Shown here in pieces: positions 36,001 to 48,000 of a stretch of DNA of 64,000 nucleotides. Source of the DNA: Candidatus Eiseniibacteriota bacterium (lineage in GTDB: Bacteria > Eisenbacteria > RBG-16-71-46). Each line of letters opens with the position of its first letter. Positions within the stretch are counted from its first letter, which is position 1. Location of the stretch: NCBI GenBank assembly GCA_031370785.1, contig JANMQY010000030.1, positions 19,085 through 83,084 of the forward strand, in the 5' to 3' direction. Made by a program: the position numbers.

Positions 36001-39000
36001 TAGGAGCCCGCGGCCGTAACCGCCGCCGCACCGTCCCACACCAGTCCATTCACGCTGATCGCCGACGCCACCCGCTGCGCCGGGGTCTCCTGGTCCCAGT
36101 GAAGGCCCGTGGCGTTGTCCAGAAGGTACTTGTCGAAGATGCTCGGGAACGAGCTGTTGTAGTTGCCGCTCGACCCGCTGGTGGTGGTGCTGAAGCCGAG
36201 GCCGTGCCCGATTTCGTGGAGCACGACCGGGAGGAGCTCGATGTTGGCGCCCTCGAGGCCGTCGTAGCCGTAGTACCAGTAGATCGGAGGAGAGCCGAAG
36301 CATCCGGTATCGATGCTCAAGTTGAACGTGGCGTTGATGTCGGGATTGGTGGGGCTTAGATCCGCGAAAAAGAGCCGGTTCGCGAGCGACTGGTGGTACC
36401 AGTGGCCTGCAACCAGCGCGCCCGCGAAGTCGCGATGGATCGTGGTCGGCCCGGCGCTGCCCAGCACCGCGCTGGTGGGAGTACAGGTCTGTGCCGCGAA
36501 CTGCGCCCGCACCAGGATCGGGACCGTGCTGGGCAATATTCCGCCCCAGATGTTCGCCGCGTACTGGAACACGTTCAGTCGTTGTTGCCCGAGCGTGGTG
36601 CCCGGGTTGCCGCCGACCGGCGCGACCGGGGTGGGATCGTTGAAGCCCACGCCCGGGAGGTTGTTATTGACGATGGTAATCGTCGCGGCGCCAGCCGATC
36701 CGAATACGAGCGCGAGCGACGATGCGAATAGCAGCGGCAGGACGCCGAGCGAGATGCCTTTCGTGGTCGCCATGGCCTAACGCTCCTCCGGCTGGGGGAC
36801 GACGGCGTTGGTGGCCGGGACCTGCGTGGGATTCTGCACGCACTTCACGACGCGCTTGCCCGAGGGAGTCATCTGGACGACGTAGTACTCCTGGAAGCGG
36901 CCCTGGAGGTCCACCATGTAGGAGCCATCCGCAAGCCGGACCTGGACCAGACCTTCGTCCGAGTCGTTGAGCAGATTGATGCCGCCGACCGGTTCCGCGC
37001 CGGCGGGTGGGGGACCGATCGTGCCGGTCTCGGGATCCTGATAGATGCGCAAGCCGGCGTCGGCCGGAGCGGAAGCAACCTCTGGCGTGCTGGTCGGCTT
37101 CGTGCGTGTCGCCTGCGTGGCCGCGGCGCGGGCCGGTGACTGGGCCACGGTTGCGAGCTGCGGCGTCGAAATCGGTGCCGGCGTCGTGGCGATCGCGTCG
37201 GCCGGACGGGGCGTCGCTCCTGCATCGGCGCGGTGTCCTGCGCCGCGTACGAACGTCGCAGCCACGGCGAGCACGAACAGCAGCAACAGCAAACGGATCG
37301 TAGCAATTCGTTTCATGGGGCGGCTCCTCGCTGAGGTAGAGGCAACTGCGCGGGCGAGAGACGAAATAGTAGTCCGTCCCCACGGCGGATTACACGCAAG
37401 AAACGAAGACCGTTCGTTCGAAATGCGGCCGGCATGAATTTCCGCACCATGGTTCGGCCGGGACCGTTTACCGCGGTCGAACGGGCGCGGGGCCCAATCC
37501 GGCGGCCGCAATGGGCGCCGGGGCCAACCCAGCGGCCGCGCCGGGCCGATCGGCTGCGGGGTGGGGTGGTGACGCGGCTATTCGAGTCGTCGGCATACCG
37601 CGGTCCGAGCGACATGGTCGTGAATTCCCAGGGCCGGCTGGTGACGACGCCGGTCAACGGTTTCGAGAGCGGCGGCACGCACACGCTCACCTGGAGCGGC
37701 AGAGACGCATCGGGCGCGCGCCTCGCGCACGGCATCTACTTCGCGAGCCTCGAGGTCGACGGGCGCCGCGAGACGCGCCGCATCGTGCTGACGAACTGAA
37801 GGCGGGGCGGGGCGCAGGCCGCGCGCCCCGCTGAACTGCGGCCGAGGCTAGAGCCGCACGAGAATCGCGGCGCGCAGCGTCCGCGCCTGGAACACCACAC
37901 CGGAGTTTCGGACCTTGTGGCTGTCACCGTAGCCGCGGGATCCGGGGAAGTCCCTCGTGAAGGTCAGCCGTTCGGACCGGTAGAGCAGTGCCTGCTCGAA
38001 CTCCGCGATCGCATCGATCTTCGATGTGAGTGGCCACCGGACACCCACCGCGCCGGCGAGGCCGGCACGAAGCGTCGATGCGATCTGATCCAGAGTTCCG
38101 GTGTAGCTGAGCGTCATCGAGTCCGCGACATACTCCGCGTGCGTGACGACCTGCCGATTATGGCGGCGCGACCATCCGACCAGCGGTCCGATACCCCACG
38201 TGAATCGAACCTCATGCGAATCATCGTGCTGGCTCAATCGGAGCGCGGTGACCGCATAGTCCGAGAGATTCGTGAGCGACTCGCCCCCCTCGGTGATGAC
38301 GTAAGGTCCCGGAAAGAAGTAATCCCGATAGGTATTGGTTCCGCTCTCGGCGTTCTGATAAAGACCGAAACCGAACCGCCATGCCCGTCGGCCATCCACG
38401 CTCTCGTGCTGGAGCGTGAGGTCGGGGCCGCGCATACCCTCGAGTGCATCGCCTTGAGACCAACCGAAACCCATGGACCAGAGGTGCGAGGCAGCCGGCG
38501 TCTCAGCCTCGTCCGCTCGCACGGTCGGGCCCGATATGGTGAGCAGGCAGGTGAGCAAAATCAGACGAGAGCGCAGGCGGCAGGACATGGCTACTCCCCG
38601 GCCATCTGCACCAGCGGCGGCGGCACCACGCCCGCCTGCTGCGCGGCCTTCGCGACCTTGAGCGGGACCAGCTTCGCGAACGCTTCGGAGAAGTGCCAGC
38701 GCTTCCACACACCTTCGAGGCGTAACGTGAGGTGCTCGCCCTCGATGCGCAGCGGAATGCCGCGGCGCCTGGCTTCGCGCGAGAGCAGCGGCGCGACGTC
38801 ACGGGTCCACTCCTCGGGCGAGGTCGCGGTCAGTACGTTGCCGCGATATTGCGCCGGATCGAGCTTCACCTCGGGGTCGAACACGAACACGCGCCCGGCG
38901 GCCGCGCCCGACATGAAGAACTTGGCGGAGTAGGGCCGGGGCCTGAGCGAGAGCTCGCCCTTCGCATCGGGCTTCCGCAGGCCCATCACGATGTGCAGCG

Positions 39001-45000: not shown

Positions 45001-48000
45001 CGTTCCCCGCGCCGTCGCCGTTGCCGCGAAGCTCCTCCGCGATCCGCTCGATGCCGATGCTCACCGGGGCACCTGCTTCCGGAAATCTTCGAGCGCCATG
45101 AACCACTCGCGGGTCGGCGCCTCCATCACGCGCAGCGTCTGCCCGCCGTTCAGGTGATTGGCCGGGCACACTTCGACGCAGGTGCCGCAGCCGATGCACA
45201 GCTCCTGCTCGGTGGTGATCCAGCGCGGGTCCAAGCCCTCGTACTCCTTGTTGGCCGCGGTCGGACACACCGCGACGCACGCCGCACAGTGAATGCACGT
45301 CGCCGCGGGGCCGGCGTCCGCCTCGGCGCGCAACAGCACGTAGCGCGTGGTGCCGGCGAGCGCGGCCGGCGTGCGCTTCTGGTAGCCGCCCGGGCGGACG
45401 TTCAGGAAGTCGCGCGTGTAGCGGGTCGAGCCGCGCAGCGTGGTGAGGATCGCTTCGTGACGCTCGCGGCGCCTCGGGCGTGCGGCATCCGATGCCTGCT
45501 GCATGGCCTGGTAGAGCGGCAGGTGCGGGATGCCGGCCTGGCAAACCTCTTCGCAGTTGCCGCAGCGCATGCAAAGGTCGAGCAGCGTGCTGCCGACTTC
45601 GCTCACGCCTTCGCCGGCGTGCATCGCCTCGCCCAGATGCGTGAGCATCTGCGGGAGGCGGATCTTCGATTCGTGGAAGATCGGACATACGCTGTTGCAC
45701 TCGCCGCAATTGACGCAGTTGAGCGCGCGCGCCGATGCTGCCTGCGCGCCGTCGATCGCGGAGGCGGGCATGTCTGCATCAGCATCGACCGGCGGCACCG
45801 CGAACCGGGCGCCGACCAGCGCCGGCTCGCCCCGACCCCGCGCCGGACCGGGAAGTGCGCGCAGTACTGCGCGCGCCGCGCGCACCAGCCATGCGACCGC
45901 CGGCGCTTCGCTCGCGCCGCGCATTACTGATACTCCGGGAACGAAGCTGCCCGCGACCAGCGCACCGAGCACACCGTGCAGGCGCAGGCCGAGACGCACG
46001 CCGCGGTTGAGCAGCGCGCGCGGATCGAGACCGCGCTTGATGCCGGCGAAGCGCTTCGCCTCCGCCTTTCCCACCTGCCGCGAGAGCCACGCCGCCTGCC
46101 AGCGCCCGAGCACGTAAGGCCGGCCCTGATGGCGCGCCATCGCGAGGTCGACCAGCGCCGGGGCGAGCAGCAGGTCGACCGCGAATGCGCCGCTGCGATG
46201 GTCGGTGAGATAGCCGCCGATCACGAGCGCGGTCCCCTCGGCGAGGAAGTACACCTCGGCGTCCAGCTCGTTGCCAGTGTTGTGCGCGAGCCGCGTGGCG
46301 CGCGGAAGAAATCCCGCGACTTCCGAAGCAGGCATCAGGATCTCGGCGGCCAGAAGCCCGGGCCCAAGCCGCTTGGTCTGCTGCGGCTTGAAGCGCTCGG
46401 CCGCAAAGCGCGCGCTGTCCGCATCGAGCACGCGCGGACGCCACGGACAGCTCCTCAGCAGCACCGCGAATGCGCGCGCCTCTTCGATGCTCAGGAAATC
46501 GACGAACAGGTAGGCCGCGCCCACGCTGTCGGGCGCGATCGTGGCGCCGAGCTTGCCCGGCGCGACGATGCGGGTCCACGGCAGGTGCGTGTCCGTGGAG
46601 AGCGCGCTCGGCGCGGTGCGCCACGTGCGCGAATCCTCGTCCTGCCACACCCGGCGCGTGTGGTGCATGTGCGAGGCGGAGAGCAGCTTCACGTTCGCCG
46701 GGCGCGCCGCCTGGTTGGCGCCGATCCAGCCCACCGCTTCGAGCGCATCGCTCTGCGAATCGAAGGCCAGCAGGAACGCGCCGATCTCGGGACGCTTTTC
46801 GACCGCGACCGTCAACTGCAGCACCAGCCCGAGCACACCCTCGCTGCCCGCGAGATCCGCGAGCGTCATCGGCTGGAGTGCGCGCTCGGCAAACCAGGCG
46901 GCGCTCTCGCCGGCCGCGACCGTCCGGCGCTTCAAGCCCTCGTCCGGCACGTCGAGCCGCCCGTCATCATGGAATCTCACGTGCTCGCCGTCCGGCAGCA
47001 CGACATCGGCGGCGCGCACGTTGTCCAGCGCGCGGCCGCGGCCGAACGCGTTCATGCCGATCCCACCGGTCACGAACCAGCCGGCGAGCGTGCCGCCGAG
47101 ATTCGACGGATAGACGCGGAGCGCGAGCCCCCGCTCGGCGAGCTTCGCATGAACGGTGCGCAGCCGCGCACCGGCGCCGACCACCACCACGCCCGAGCCG
47201 GGCTCGATGTCGATCGTGTCGAGGCGCGACAGGTCGAGCGTCAACCCCGCGTCGTTCGGCACCGCGCCACCCATCGCGGTCGAAGCCGCGCCGCGTAGCG
47301 TGACCGGCACGTTCGACTCGCGCGCCCAGCGCAATGCGCGGGTGCACTCGGCGAGGTTGACCGGCTGGAAGATCACGTCCGGAACCGCGCTCGTCAGCGT
47401 GCGGGTGAACATCCTGCCCAGATAGACGTTCTGATCGCGATCCGCCTCGGTGCGCAGGAACGCGTCCGTGACGATCCGCTCGCTCAGCGAGGCCGAGACG
47501 CCATCCTTCTCGGCATCGGTGCTGAGCGCGGTGTGCAGGGCCTGCGCCAGCAGGAGCGTGCGCTCAGGAGCGCGGCGCTGATCGAGAGCGACGCCCTCGT
47601 CGAAGAAGAAATTGAGGTCGGAGATGCGTTCGCGCTTCGCGGCCGCGCGCGGGTCGGAGGTTGGCCCCGGTGCTGCGTCGGGCGGCCGGCCGAGGGTCTT
47701 CTCGAGAGTGGAGTCGGTCATCCCGGTGGGTTCGGGGAAGGCGCGAGCCGCCGAAGGGCCTCACGGGGCCGTTCCGTGCGACGAACACGCAGGAAATGCG
47801 CCTGATCGGGCGCATGTGGCTGCGTGAACCGGGGGACTATAACAGAGGGGGTGCGGCGGGTCACACCCGGCGGCGTGCGCCGGATGCGCGCTACTTCCCC
47901 ATCAGAATCGCGGTCACGTTGATGAACGACAGCACGAAGCCCGCCGCGGTGACGAGCAGCAGGCCCAGCGCTAGCAGTTGCACGCCCAGGCTCTCGCGCT

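Follow-up and report, generated by a model that had tools for sequence, protein, structure and literature searches.

A gene pair from an uncultured sediment bacterium, Candidatus Eiseniibacteriota (contig JANMQY010000030.1; own genome completeness 100%, contamination 0.91%), encodes a relative of glutamate synthase (GltS, GOGAT), so far undescribed and with its domains shuffled, that is wired to an iron-sulfur flavoprotein. The two products, a giant protein and its flavoprotein partner, are outlined in Table 1, with coordinates given as positions in the window, the whole 64,000-nt stretch of DNA that was analysed. The giant retains the glutaminase, synthase and cluster-site residues, which supports its assignment as a rearranged glutamate-synthase homologue. 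In the literature, no publication on the giant/partner family was found. The neighbour listed in the first-pass annotation (g01367, 47718–48698) proved to be a wrong-frame ORF, and the actual gene at that place encodes a rhomboid protease.

Table 1. Features of the gene pair and its surroundings in the window.
Feature	Position	Strand	Basis
Partner gene, 886 aa	45061..47721	-	ORF; VAO/PCMH-type FAD domain, cap domain, two 2x[4Fe-4S]-type ferredoxin domains
FAD_binding_4 domain, partner residues 114-250	46972..47382	-	Pfam, 98.3 bits, E 3.9e-28
First dicluster domain, partner residues 666-731; Cys 669/672/675/679 + 717/720/723/727	45529..45726	-	Fer4_8, 60 bits
Second dicluster domain, partner residues 807-855; Cys 809/812/815/819 + 842/845/848/852	45157..45303	-	Fer4_10 (54 bits), Fer4_9, Fer4
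GTGA overlap, partner stop codon / giant start codon	45061..45064	-	sequence read
Giant gene, 2,157 aa	38591..45064	-	ORF with GTG start; full-length homologues (56-79% identity)
N-terminal (beta/alpha)8 barrel, FMN-oxidoreductase / GltS-barrel type, residues ~100-448	43721..44767	-	AF2 model
Small all-beta domain, residues ~620-716	42917..43207	-	AF2 strands 622-716, pLDDT ~90
Glutamate-synthase FMN/synthase barrel, residues 727-1030	41975..42886	-	Pfam PF01645, 160.4 bits vs cut-off 20.4
Cluster motif C992-N-Q-C995-G-N-C998-H-L-D-C1002-P1003	42056..42091	-	alignment to GltA
Predicted self-cleavage site Ser1097/Cys1098 in D1096-S-C1098-R-V-G-S1102	41759..41779	-	invariance; gene boundary in split relatives
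Class II (Ntn, PurF-type) glutamine amidotransferase, residues 1098 to ~1651, with insert of ~200 residues	40112..41773	-	AF2 fold
GXGXG-like beta-helix region, residues ~1825-2134	38663..39592	-	alignment to PF01493-bearing relatives
Rhomboid protease gene	47891..48724	-	169 bases upstream of partner

Domain architecture of the giant

From its N-terminus, the giant runs through a TIM barrel, an FMN barrel of the glutamate-synthase kind bearing a cluster motif, an internal class II amidotransferase and a GXGXG-like region. This set of domains, proposed in the first-pass annotation, was recovered by Pfam, AF2 models and comparison with relatives. The description of the protein as circularly permuted is inexact; the order indicates that one domain has been transposed.

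Pfam matched only Glu_synthase in the giant (residues 727–943 and a second stretch, E 9.6e-47), besides weak Fer4 hits at residues 985–1005. The FMN barrel aligns to residues 858–1080 of A. brasilense GltS and keeps the QGAKPG-GG-L-G-KV and SP-P-HDIYSIED motifs, while an invariant 'GGRL' replaces the 'GGQL' of that enzyme. The positions of K806 and R826 are also kept. The NCBIfam GltB equivalog model scores 81 bits on the giant against a cut-off of 1047. In the cluster motif, C992, C998 and C1002 align with 'C....CHLDtCP' of B. subtilis GltA (7mfm_G) and presumably occupy [3Fe-4S] ligand positions; C995 is extra. Sets of 30 and of 39 sequences show no variation at any of the four cysteines.

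The AF2 model of the N-terminal part (pLDDT 74.3 overall, ~90 within the barrel) superposes on GltS 1ea0_A with a Z score of 18.5 over 277 aligned residues (VIA), with mandelate oxidase and flavocytochrome b2 tied at Z ~17. Across 37 members, Pfam gave no match to this barrel except two weak Glu_synthase hits. At the other end, residues ~1825–2134 align to relatives that carry PF01493 above cut-off; this family was detected in 23 of 35 homologues (best E 2e-4), the window's own copy being without a match.

The amidotransferase domain and a predicted self-cleavage site

The amidotransferase domain was modelled with a pLDDT of 81 and a pTM of 0.87. GltS entries filled the top five places in Foldseek (E 1.6e-6 to 8.6e-5, probability 1.0), with GlmS, GFAT and PurF next. 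By VIA, the model aligned best with Fd-GOGAT 1ofe_A (Z 21.5, rmsd 3.6, 360 aligned residues), with PurF at Z 16.5 and GlmS at Z 15.7. Cys1098 is the first aligned residue and pairs with residue 1 of the GltS, PurF and GlmS chains. C1098, R1395, N1427-G1428 and D1472, whose roles we assume to be those of their counterparts in PurF, GlmS and GltS, are invariant in 37 sequences, GS-less hosts included. The motifs D-S-C-R-V-x-S, H-H-R-Y-P-T-N-S and H-N-G-E were unchanged in 30 and in 37 sequences. No Pfam GATase family matched any of the 37 giants and sequence profiles found no relative in the PDB, so the glutaminase assignment rests on the predicted fold, the motifs and intermediate sequences; the intermediate relatives bear Pfam GATase_6 and GXGXG at the corresponding places.

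Every class II amidotransferase needs a free alpha-amino group on its catalytic cysteine. In split relatives the giant is divided into two genes just upstream of the cysteine site: the FMN protein ends after 'ELRGRTD.L', and the next protein opens with an 8–33-residue leader ahead of 'EGGCGV'. Since the cysteine is still preceded by a leader (8–40 residues) in these relatives, cleavage between Ser1097 and Cys1098 by the giant itself is the likely maturation step. The solved B. subtilis chain likewise aligns to the model from its residue 22.

The partner flavoprotein

The conserved motifs of the FAD domain are retained in 37 partner sequences, and the protein belongs to the GlcD/LDHD/LctD branch, its closest solved chains being LctD 7qh2_C (E 1.3e-10) and LDHD. 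The count of two [4Fe-4S] clusters given in the first-pass annotation is too low: four CxxCxxCxxxC motifs (16 Cys) are present and could hold up to four clusters. Across 35 partner sequences, the eight cysteines of the first dicluster domain are invariant and those of the second are kept in at least 90%. D-2-hydroxyacid dehydrogenases place catalytic and metal residues in a C-terminal stretch that reads 'GIGYAKR' in LctD. The partner has 'PYVLGRW' there instead, which makes a hydroxyacid doubtful as its substrate. Neither Pfam nor the neighbourhood analysis showed an NAD(P)H- or ferredoxin-binding module associated with the gene pair.

Linkage of the two genes

A search yielded 745 homologues of the giant, the best 120 of which measure 1,827–2,341 aa at 56–100% identity. 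Among 63 loci, the partner lies upstream of the giant in 48; the remaining 15 loci begin at most 119 bases before the giant match and so contain no upstream DNA. The partner was thus found in 48 of the 48 loci with upstream DNA. Distant relatives carry both as a single fused protein, with the order conserved in P0297, P0328 and P0357 and changed in P0336, which supports the VAO-type FAD/Fe-S neighbour as the true functional partner of the giant. The fused relatives cover the full GlcD model (positions 3–413 of 413) and read 'PYG(F/L)GIW' at the 'GIGYAKR' position.

A type III glutamine synthetase (GS) gene does lie between partner and giant in some relatives (L013, L018, L020 and L052), and glnN adjoins the giant in G038, G039, G122, G133 and G149. 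The ligase in the operon, 776–805 aa long and bearing GSIII_N, is a complete type III GS.

Phyletic pattern of glutamine synthetase

Profile searches of the host's own genome left PF00120, PF00310 and PF01493 all unmatched, in line with the reported lack of GS and canonical GOGAT; PF01645 matched the giant alone, besides one 20-bit match. The genome contains two GDH genes, at least 10 amidotransferase genes and no PF04960 glutaminase. It lacks GltB, and its sole GltD-like gene belongs to a pyrimidine-catabolism cluster.

Comparison of 124 genomes of the phylum showed that GS is absent from 21 of the 32 carriers (26 with the giant, 6 with the split form) versus 1 of 92 non-carriers. The GS-less carriers comprise 19 giant-bearing genomes, including one single-contig genome and six at least 94% complete, and two with the split form; the other four split-form carriers keep GS. 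At least five changes of GS state map onto the tree of 24 giants, with sister pairs that differ in GS (G038+/G008-, G074+/G145-, G150+/G065-), and the GS-less G043 and G107, from other families, have a divergent split form. GS loss within the phylum is real and tightly tied to the system. In other phyla, GS is present in 20 of 22 carriers. No canonical GltB turned up in any of 44 genomes drawn from this family and the one sister to it, nor in 18 of the 22 carriers of other phyla; the remaining four have it. The general lack of GltB, like the GS of these carriers and the linked glnN, supports a GOGAT role.

Proposed reaction and alternatives

The best explanation, which we hold tentatively and at slightly less than an even chance, is that the two proteins together form a single glutamate-synthase-type flavoenzyme with iron-sulfur clusters, a rearranged GOGAT fitted with a new electron module. 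The giant would be made as a precursor, and the cut at Ser1097/Cys1098 would free the alpha-amino group of Cys1098 and yield two chains that stay together, alpha of ~120 kDa (extra barrel and FMN/cluster barrel) and beta of ~117 kDa (glutaminase and beta-helix). Glutamine would be hydrolysed at Cys1098, the ammonia would pass to the FMN barrel and add to 2-oxoglutarate, and FMNH2 would reduce the imine to glutamate. The partner, standing in for GltD or ferredoxin, would take electrons from a reductant at its FAD site and pass them through up to four [4Fe-4S] clusters and the C992–C1002 cluster to FMN. Where GS is retained, often with glnN placed in the operon as in an ordinary GS-GOGAT pair, the enzyme would serve as the GOGAT half of the cycle; GS-less hosts, this one included, would turn glutamine from uptake or peptides into glutamate. 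The internal position of Cys1098 counts against this explanation, as does the oddity of a glutamine-consuming enzyme in GS-less hosts without a glutamine source. The four carriers that have canonical GltB as well and the partner's 'PYVLGRW' stretch also weigh against it. The earlier notion of a fourth class of glutamate synthase with its own electron partner survives in the rearranged GltS homologue, the fused partner and the missing GltB, and fails in the strict permutation and the 2x[4Fe-4S] count.

It is possible, if unlikely, that the same enzyme runs in the opposite direction in GS-less hosts (2 Glu -> Gln + 2-oxoglutarate + 2e-). Glutamate would be oxidised at FMN, tunnel-held ammonia would amidate a gamma-glutamyl-Cys1098 thioester to glutamine, and electrons would leave by the cluster chain and partner FAD to a high-potential acceptor. 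The concentration of GS loss in carriers, its repeated changes between sisters and the GS-less G043 and G107 favour this direction, as do the amidotransferases that GS-less hosts retain and the invariant Ntn catalytic residues. Our own estimate from standard potentials puts the GOGAT couple at about -0.07 V, so the reverse reaction would be exergonic with an acceptor at quinone potential or higher. However, starting from free glutamate, thioester formation is energetically uphill, and to our knowledge no amidotransferase runs in the glutamine-forming direction. The operon glnN and the GS of carriers in other phyla suit a forward GOGAT, the split-form carriers that retain GS speak against reversal, the related genomes are not independent, and glutamine uptake explains GS loss equally well.

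That the GltS architecture serves other substrates is improbable. Here either the Ntn domain would act on asparagine or on a different gamma-glutamyl amide and set an amine free, or a different 2-oxoacid would be aminated at the FMN site. N-methylglutamate synthase (MgsABC) is a precedent, being built of GltB1, GltB3 and GltB2 homologues and paired with a GS-like ligase (PMC6237917). The 'GGRL' motif, the low GltB score, the extra barrel and the Ntn insert point the same way. Against this, the operon ligase is a type III GS and not a GmaS of ~430 aa, no mgd genes lie near the pair, and amine exchange needs no redox partner. K806, R826 and the glutaminase-site Arg, Asp and Asn-Gly set, in the roles we presume for them, likewise argue for the usual substrates. 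Very improbable is a redox-neutral 'hydrogen-borrowing' amination, in which the partner would oxidise a D-2-hydroxyacid (e.g. D-2-hydroxyglutarate) to the 2-oxoacid and the same two electrons would pass via the clusters to FMN and reduce the imine from glutamine-derived ammonia, with no outside donor or acceptor: the partner's branch, the whole-GlcD match of the fusions, the lack of a linked NAD(P)H- or ferredoxin-binding module and the closed FAD–clusters–FMN chain that would form favour it, but the replaced 'GIGYAKR' stretch counts against it and GS loss is left unexplained.

GS loss is compatible with glutamine formation and equally with a forward GOGAT fed by external glutamine. Were the reverse direction true, the pair would constitute a glutamine synthase driven by redox chemistry and independent of ATP, and GS would no longer be needed. 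The gene pair may alter how GS-less bacteria obtain glutamine.

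The giant and its partner form a conserved two-gene locus

The gene for the glutamate-synthase-like protein (the giant) follows directly on the gene for its FAD/Fe-S partner, and the letters GTGA in the sequence are common to the partner stop codon and the giant start codon. A protein search returned 745 homologues of the giant, the best 120 of which are 1,827-2,341 residues long, 56-100% identical and named at most 'glutamate synthase-related'. Conservation of the giant amounts to 56-79% identity across 2,100 residues. Scanning species genomes brought up 63 giant loci, every one in a metagenome-assembled genome, labelled Eisenbacteria, Thermoleophilia or other Actinomycetota, Planctomycetota, Krumholzibacteriia and one 'Deltaproteobacteria'. 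The family is seen in uncultured bacteria only, in at least four phyla.

The partner gene lies directly upstream of the giant in 48 of the 63 loci, in agreement with the linkage proposed by the first-pass annotation. The other 15 are uninformative on this point because the giant match begins no more than 119 bases from the start of the locus, with no upstream DNA. The same annotation had counted g01367 (47718-48698) in 10 of 37 loci. This proved to be an arginine-rich ORF in the wrong frame, overlying a rhomboid protease gene, and was rejected as a conserved third gene; the rhomboid gene ends 169 bases ahead of the partner ATG.

Features of the two-gene locus and its surroundings, in window coordinates
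Feature	Position	Strand	Evidence
Subtilase, 1,569 aa, FlgD_ig-like domain at end	29422-34131	-	
PA-domain protein, 659 aa, FlgD_ig-like domain at end	34794-36773	-	
ORF directly downstream of giant, signal-peptide-like start (MSCRLRSRLILLTCLL...)	37848-38585	-	
Giant, 2,157 aa, GTG start	38591-45064	-	ORF call
Partner, 886 aa	45061-47721	-	ORF call
Rhomboid protease with N-terminal zinc ribbon	47891-48724	-	PF01694, E 2.8e-23

The neighbours of the locus in the window are the rhomboid protease, an MFS transporter and peptidases. The S8 subtilase and the PA-domain protein are probably secreted peptidases, which would fit a peptide-feeding lifestyle. The ORF directly downstream of the giant gave no Pfam match, and a 338-residue ORF on the opposite strand (37917-38933, +) is an antisense shadow of this ORF and of the 3' end of the giant.

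Two RNA-labelled sequencing runs (X9 and X10) contain contigs of 19 and 45 kb that are ∼93% identical to the window across the whole operon. Contigs of this length in an RNA library are most likely DNA, so no inference on transcription is drawn from them. In this relative, 2,389 other letters replace 23 bases of the rhomboid-partner gap (47865-47889), a replacement comparable, by length alone, to a type III glutamine synthetase gene (glnN).

The giant contains a glutamate synthase FMN barrel with a fourth cysteine at the predicted cluster site

The glutamate synthase (GltS) FMN barrel that had been assigned to the middle of the giant is borne out by the Pfam model PF01645, which scores 160.4 bits (cut-off 20.4) over residues 727-943 and a second stretch. 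The other Pfam signal in the protein consists of weak ferredoxin matches at residues 985-1005. The NCBIfam GltB equivalog NF008730 covers the FMN part only and, at 81 bits, falls below its cut-off of 1047. Comparison with the A. brasilense (1ea0, 6s6s) and B. subtilis GltS showed that the motifs QGAKPG-GG-L-G-KV and SP-P-HDIYSIED are kept.

Behind the barrel, the segment 'CnqCgnCHLD-CP' of the giant aligns onto 'CvmmraCHLDtCP' of 7mfm_G. We take the latter, from GltA, to hold the three [3Fe-4S] ligands, which would place Cys-992, Cys-998 and Cys-1002 of the giant at ligand positions. The invariant Cys-995 adds a fourth cysteine to give CxxCxxCxxxCP, and this suggests that the giant may bind a ferredoxin-type [4Fe-4S] cluster at Cys-992 to Cys-1002.

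The N-terminal part (residues 1-720) was modelled by AF2 on 37 sequences (pLDDT 74.3). Residues ∼100-448 are predicted to form a (β/α)8 barrel, seemingly complete, as had been claimed for the region ahead of the FMN barrel. Next come a helical stretch predicted with low confidence and a confident small β domain at ∼620-716. Foldseek retrieved only generic FMN-type and aldolase-type barrels for this part. In the VIA comparison of the first barrel, the GltS chain 1ea0_A came top (Z 18.5, 277 aligned residues), tied with mandelate oxidase, flavocytochrome b2 and IMPDH (Z 16-17). The GltS central domain PF04898 matched none of the 37 N-terminal regions, Pfam gave nothing else useful for the first 720 residues, and an Atlas look-up gave weak leads, with a score of 0.84 to Glu_synthase clusters.

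A predicted glutaminase domain lies inside the chain

The linker behind the FMN barrel leads into an invariant D-S-C1098-R-V-x-S segment (37 sequences). An AF2 model of residues 1085-1680 (pLDDT 81, pTM 0.87) retrieved glutamate synthases as all of its top five Foldseek matches (E 1.6e-6 to 8.6e-5, probability 1.0), with GlmS, GFAT and PurF next. By VIA, the model superimposes on 1ofe_A with a Z of 21.5 (rmsd 3.6, 360 aligned residues), on PurF with 16.5 and on GlmS with 15.7. The first aligned pair in each of the three comparisons places model residue 14, which is Cys-1098, on chain residue 1. The motifs HHRYPTNS, HNGE and TDTE, invariant in the 37 giants, presumably supply the Arg, the Asn-Gly oxyanion pair and the glutamine-binding Asp, as in PurF, GlmS and GltS. 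The internal amidotransferase-like domain that had been proposed is thus seen, in the predicted fold, as a PurF-type class II glutaminase domain with its nucleophile Cys and Arg, Asn-Gly and Asp set. Pfam GATase models matched this region in none of the 37 members, and sequence profiles of the glutaminase and C-terminal regions found only chance matches among PDB sequences (E > 0.5).

The C-terminal region had been read as a GXGXG β-helix. This has some support in relatives: PF01493 matches 23 of 35 homologues weakly (best E 2e-4), and distant relatives aligned over the same stretch exceed its cut-off. The copy in the window is not matched by PF01493 even with E values as high as 10 allowed. 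The domain order of the giant is barrel, FMN barrel, glutaminase and GXGXG-like region. Of the circular permutation claimed for it, the rearranged order stands, but a strict circular permutation does not; the glutaminase domain is transposed instead.

The partner is a flavoprotein with four Cys4 motifs

The partner matches FAD_binding_4 at residues 114-250 (98.3 bits, cut-off 26.4), with FAD-oxidase_C just under threshold (19.6 bits, cut-off 21.2) and two dicluster domains reported by Pfam. Its 16 conserved cysteines form four CxxCxxCxxxC ferredoxin motifs. The VAO-type FAD part of the earlier description is therefore upheld, but the number of clusters, put at two [4Fe-4S], is not. Among solved structures, the partner comes nearest to LctD (7qh2_C, E 1.3e-10) and to the D-lactate dehydrogenase of mitochondria. 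The GlcD equivalog TIGR00387 scores 61.8 bits on the partner, below its cut-off of 567.9, and partner-giant fusions match the whole GlcD model. Opposite the C-terminal 'GIGYAKR' of LctD, where D-2-hydroxyacid dehydrogenases presumably have their catalytic and metal-binding residues, the partner has 'PYVLGRW' and the fusions have 'PYG(F/L)GIW'.

Fused and split relatives

A search of residues 1085-2157 of the giant against 1.84 billion representatives gave 212 matches. Three of the distant ones, P0297 (3,016 residues), P0328 (2,526 residues) and P0357 (2,881 residues), carry FAD_binding_4, FAD-oxidase_C, Fer4, Glu_synthase, GATase_6 and GXGXG in that order; judged by domain content, they are partner and giant in a single chain. 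The GATase_6-GXGXG module comes first in P0336 (3,152 residues) and stands alone in P0313, P0314 and P0326 (878-898 residues); P0320 (1,049 residues) has GATase_6 and GXGXG as well. The Cys motif is present in the first three of these shorter proteins and was not found in P0320. Among the Eisenbacteria, open frames over the giant in G074 (contig C6, 3,198 residues) and G150 (contig C195, 3,124 residues) are about as long as partner and giant together, so the two proteins may be fused in these genomes also.

The whole system is split over three to four genes in the same order in two genomes of the phylum that belong to other families and have no glutamine synthetase (GS), G043 (L093, G043:C7:82000-98000) and G107 (L092, G107:C111:6000-22000). 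An FAD/Fe-S protein is followed by the barrel and FMN protein(s) and then by a GATase_6+GXGXG protein, with an additional Fer4 domain at the N-terminus of every barrel protein. The split-form FMN protein stops a few residues past 'ELRGRTD.L', the point at which the giant continues into the linker and Cys-1098, and the next protein opens with a leader and then 'EGGCGV'. A separate search for split genes among shorter proteins found mainly contig-end and frameshifted pieces and no split form by itself. The G107 cluster adjoins a gene for a glutamine-dependent NAD synthetase (CN_hydrolase and NAD_synthase).

The presumed catalytic cysteine is residue 1098 of the giant gene product and thus internal. 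It is not at position 2 in P0313, P0314 and P0326 either, where 30-45 residues precede 'EGGCGV'; shorter relatives (P0321, P0366, P0373, P0375 and P0377) have 8-34 residues, and the solved B. subtilis GltS chain aligns from its residue 22, that is, with a leader before the Cys. Members of the family thus share a leader ahead of the nucleophile, and in the giant, by all appearances a fusion, the whole alpha part serves as the 'leader' of the glutaminase. Cleavage between Ser-1097 and Cys-1098 would be the simplest route to an active glutaminase, and we infer that the giant is probably a self-cleaving precursor. Ntn-hydrolase precursors of the penicillin acylase type cut themselves into alpha and beta chains; the giant resembles them in having an internal nucleophile that would need a new N-terminus in the mature enzyme. 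To our knowledge, class II amidotransferases have only short propeptides. The 1,097-residue upstream part of the giant, which would remain as the catalytic subunit, differs from these and would be new for the class.

The system is associated with loss of glutamine synthetase

The genome that holds the window (147 contigs, completeness 100%, contamination 0.91%) gave no match to PF00120, PF00310, PF01493 or PF04960; the absence of PF00120 and PF00310 confirms the reported lack of GS and canonical glutamate synthase (GOGAT). It has two GDH genes and, as amidotransferases, five PF00117 and five PF13522 genes. Its only Fer4_20 gene is GltD-like (Fer4_20 and Pyr_redox_2; contig C66, 1-5152, L095) and follows CN_hydrolase and amidohydrolase genes, neighbours that place it probably in pyrimidine breakdown. 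The group resembles a cluster for reductive pyrimidine degradation that the end of the contig has truncated, and the GltD-like gene was rejected on these grounds as a partner of the giant.

The glutaminase region of the giant occurs in 24 of 151 genomes sampled from the phylum, and two more (G028 and G113) have contig-end pieces of the giant. GS, examined in 124 of the 151, is absent from 19 of 26 giant carriers, two of six split-form carriers and one of 92 non-carriers (G089); the counts include one unpublished genome (G015, with GS and without the system), on which no claim hangs. An assembly gap as the cause was ruled out, since GS is also missing from G084, whose assembly is a single contig, and from six carriers with a completeness of 94% or more. 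In five GS-less carriers, a query with a type III GS protein, run without a positive control, likewise found nothing. The 1,611 bases of the window's genome that lay outside the search are too few for a 2.3-kb glnN. Within the family, PF00310 exceeded its cut-off in none of 44 genomes and PF01645 was not found in non-carriers, so that relatives have either GS without any GOGAT or the system, mostly without GS.

Where carriers keep GS, its gene is found next to the pair or in the middle of it (L013, L018, L020 and L052; G038, G039, G122, G133 and G149). The first four loci have it between partner and giant, as described earlier for some relatives. The ligase of these relatives is a type III enzyme of 776-805 residues with GSIII_N. 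On the glutaminase-region tree, a gene tree and not a species tree, from a quick search with SH-aLRT support only, GS presence needs at least five changes among 24 rows, and sister pairs differ in state. Two Planctomycetota giants (L029 and L032) nest within the Eisenbacteria clade (SH-aLRT 91-98), which suggests that the two-gene module moved horizontally. GS is present in 20 of 22 carriers outside the phylum, and 4 of the 22 also have canonical GltB.

Discussion

The giant and its partner represent, in our view, a genuine variant of glutamate synthase that is strongly conserved, has gone undescribed and is paired with a new electron partner. A full-text literature search, from which subscription journals were mostly out of reach and which is hence not proof, found no paper on the giant family. 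Described glutamate synthases comprise NADPH-, Fd- and NADH-GltS and archaeal single-domain ORFs, and the order in GltS is glutaminase (1-422), central (423-780), synthase (781-1202) and β-helix (1203-1472) (PMC8097209). No order or partner like those of the giant is among the GltS forms described there.

Compared with GltB/GltD and Fd-GltS (reference structures 1ea0, 6s6s, 7mfm, 1ofd and 1llw), the giant has in its predicted fold the PurF-type glutaminase with its nucleophile Cys (Z 20-21.5), shared motif segments in the FMN/synthase barrel, cysteines at aligned cluster positions and a GXGXG-like C-terminal region, matched by PF01493 in relatives. Its first barrel stands where the GltS central domain sits in the published domain map (PMC8097209). 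It differs in length (2,157 versus ∼1,500 residues for GltB), in a seemingly complete barrel without PF04898 before the FMN domain, in a glutaminase that follows the FMN barrel rather than coming first (PMC8097209), and in a fourth cysteine that makes the cluster site a ferredoxin-like CxxCxxCxxxCP. The proposal that its partner is neither GltD nor ferredoxin is supported: instead of GltD (Fer4_20 and Pyr_redox_2) or ferredoxin, the linked or fused protein is a VAO-type FAD_binding_4 protein with four Cys4 motifs. Use of free ferredoxin by the giant is possible. The split 'archaeal-type' GltB1, GltB2 and GltB3 proteins and the split form of G043 and G107 have the same modules as giant and partner, of which the window's system fuses all but the flavoprotein into one chain; Archaea have ORFs for single GltS domains (PMC8097209), a likeness by description and not by archaeal sequence.

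We tentatively favour GOGAT chemistry in the forward direction, a reading that falls somewhat short of an even chance. Its basis is that the residues of glutaminase, synthase and cluster site are conserved, that barrel, FMN, glutaminase and helix domains occur as a set, and that the system is linked to glnN. The partner would serve as the electron module, passing electrons from its FAD through up to four clusters to the Cys-992 to Cys-1002 cluster and on to FMN, and GS-less cells would take up glutamine from peptides. Peptide glutamine may explain the loss of GS, in keeping with the S8 and PA-domain peptidases, probably secreted, in the window. Forward GOGAT chemistry nevertheless implies a strongly constrained glutamine consumer in cells without a known glutamine-making route, and the GS pattern is the chief observation that speaks against it.

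In a bolder reading, which we consider unlikely, GS-less bacteria would run this glutamate synthase backwards as an ATP-free source of the cell's glutamine. One glutamate would be oxidised, pulled by the partner and a high-potential acceptor, and tunnel-confined ammonia would pass to a glutamate thioester on Cys-1098, a route we regard with equal doubt. The GOGAT couple lies at about -0.07 V by our own estimate from standard potentials, and an acceptor at quinone potential or higher would permit the reaction. Against it, we know of no enzyme that makes glutamine by reverse GOGAT chemistry.

A distinctly weaker prospect is that the system acts on other substrates, as N-methylglutamate synthase does (PMC6237917). 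MgsABC combines proteins of the GltB1, GltB3 and GltB2 types and has a ligase of the GS family linked to it, but it consists of three small subunits (300, 225 and 442 residues) rather than one 2,157-residue chain, its ligase GmaS has 432 residues, and as described it has no FAD/Fe-S partner and stands in a methylamine context (PMC6237917). No such context (mgdABCD or a ∼430-residue gmaS) was found at the window locus or the relatives' loci.

A redox-neutral conversion of a hydroxyacid to an amino acid is the least probable and would be a surprise. The partner shares FAD_binding_4 and the cap domain with GlcD, LDHD and LctD, and Fe-S domains behind the flavoprotein part with YdiJ-type or GlcF-like fusions, but it scores far under the curated cut-offs, differs in its C-terminal signature and, unlike GlcD, LDHD and LctD, is always beside or fused to a GltS-like enzyme; GlcF and YdiJ models match it weakly, and Pfam reported no CCG domains in it.

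Glutamate synthase has so far been described as three classes and loose archaeal domain genes (PMC8097209). The giant and its partner would add a glutaminase that sits inside the chain and must be released by cleavage, a cluster of the ferredoxin type where GltS has its [3Fe-4S] site, and, instead of GltD or ferredoxin, a VAO-type flavoprotein carrying a long chain of clusters. The link to GS loss raises a question, sharp and open to test, about a step that is considered universal among free-living bacteria: either the hosts, which live in soil and sediment, are glutamine auxotrophs that keep a costly glutamine consumer, or they have an ATP-free redox route to glutamine.
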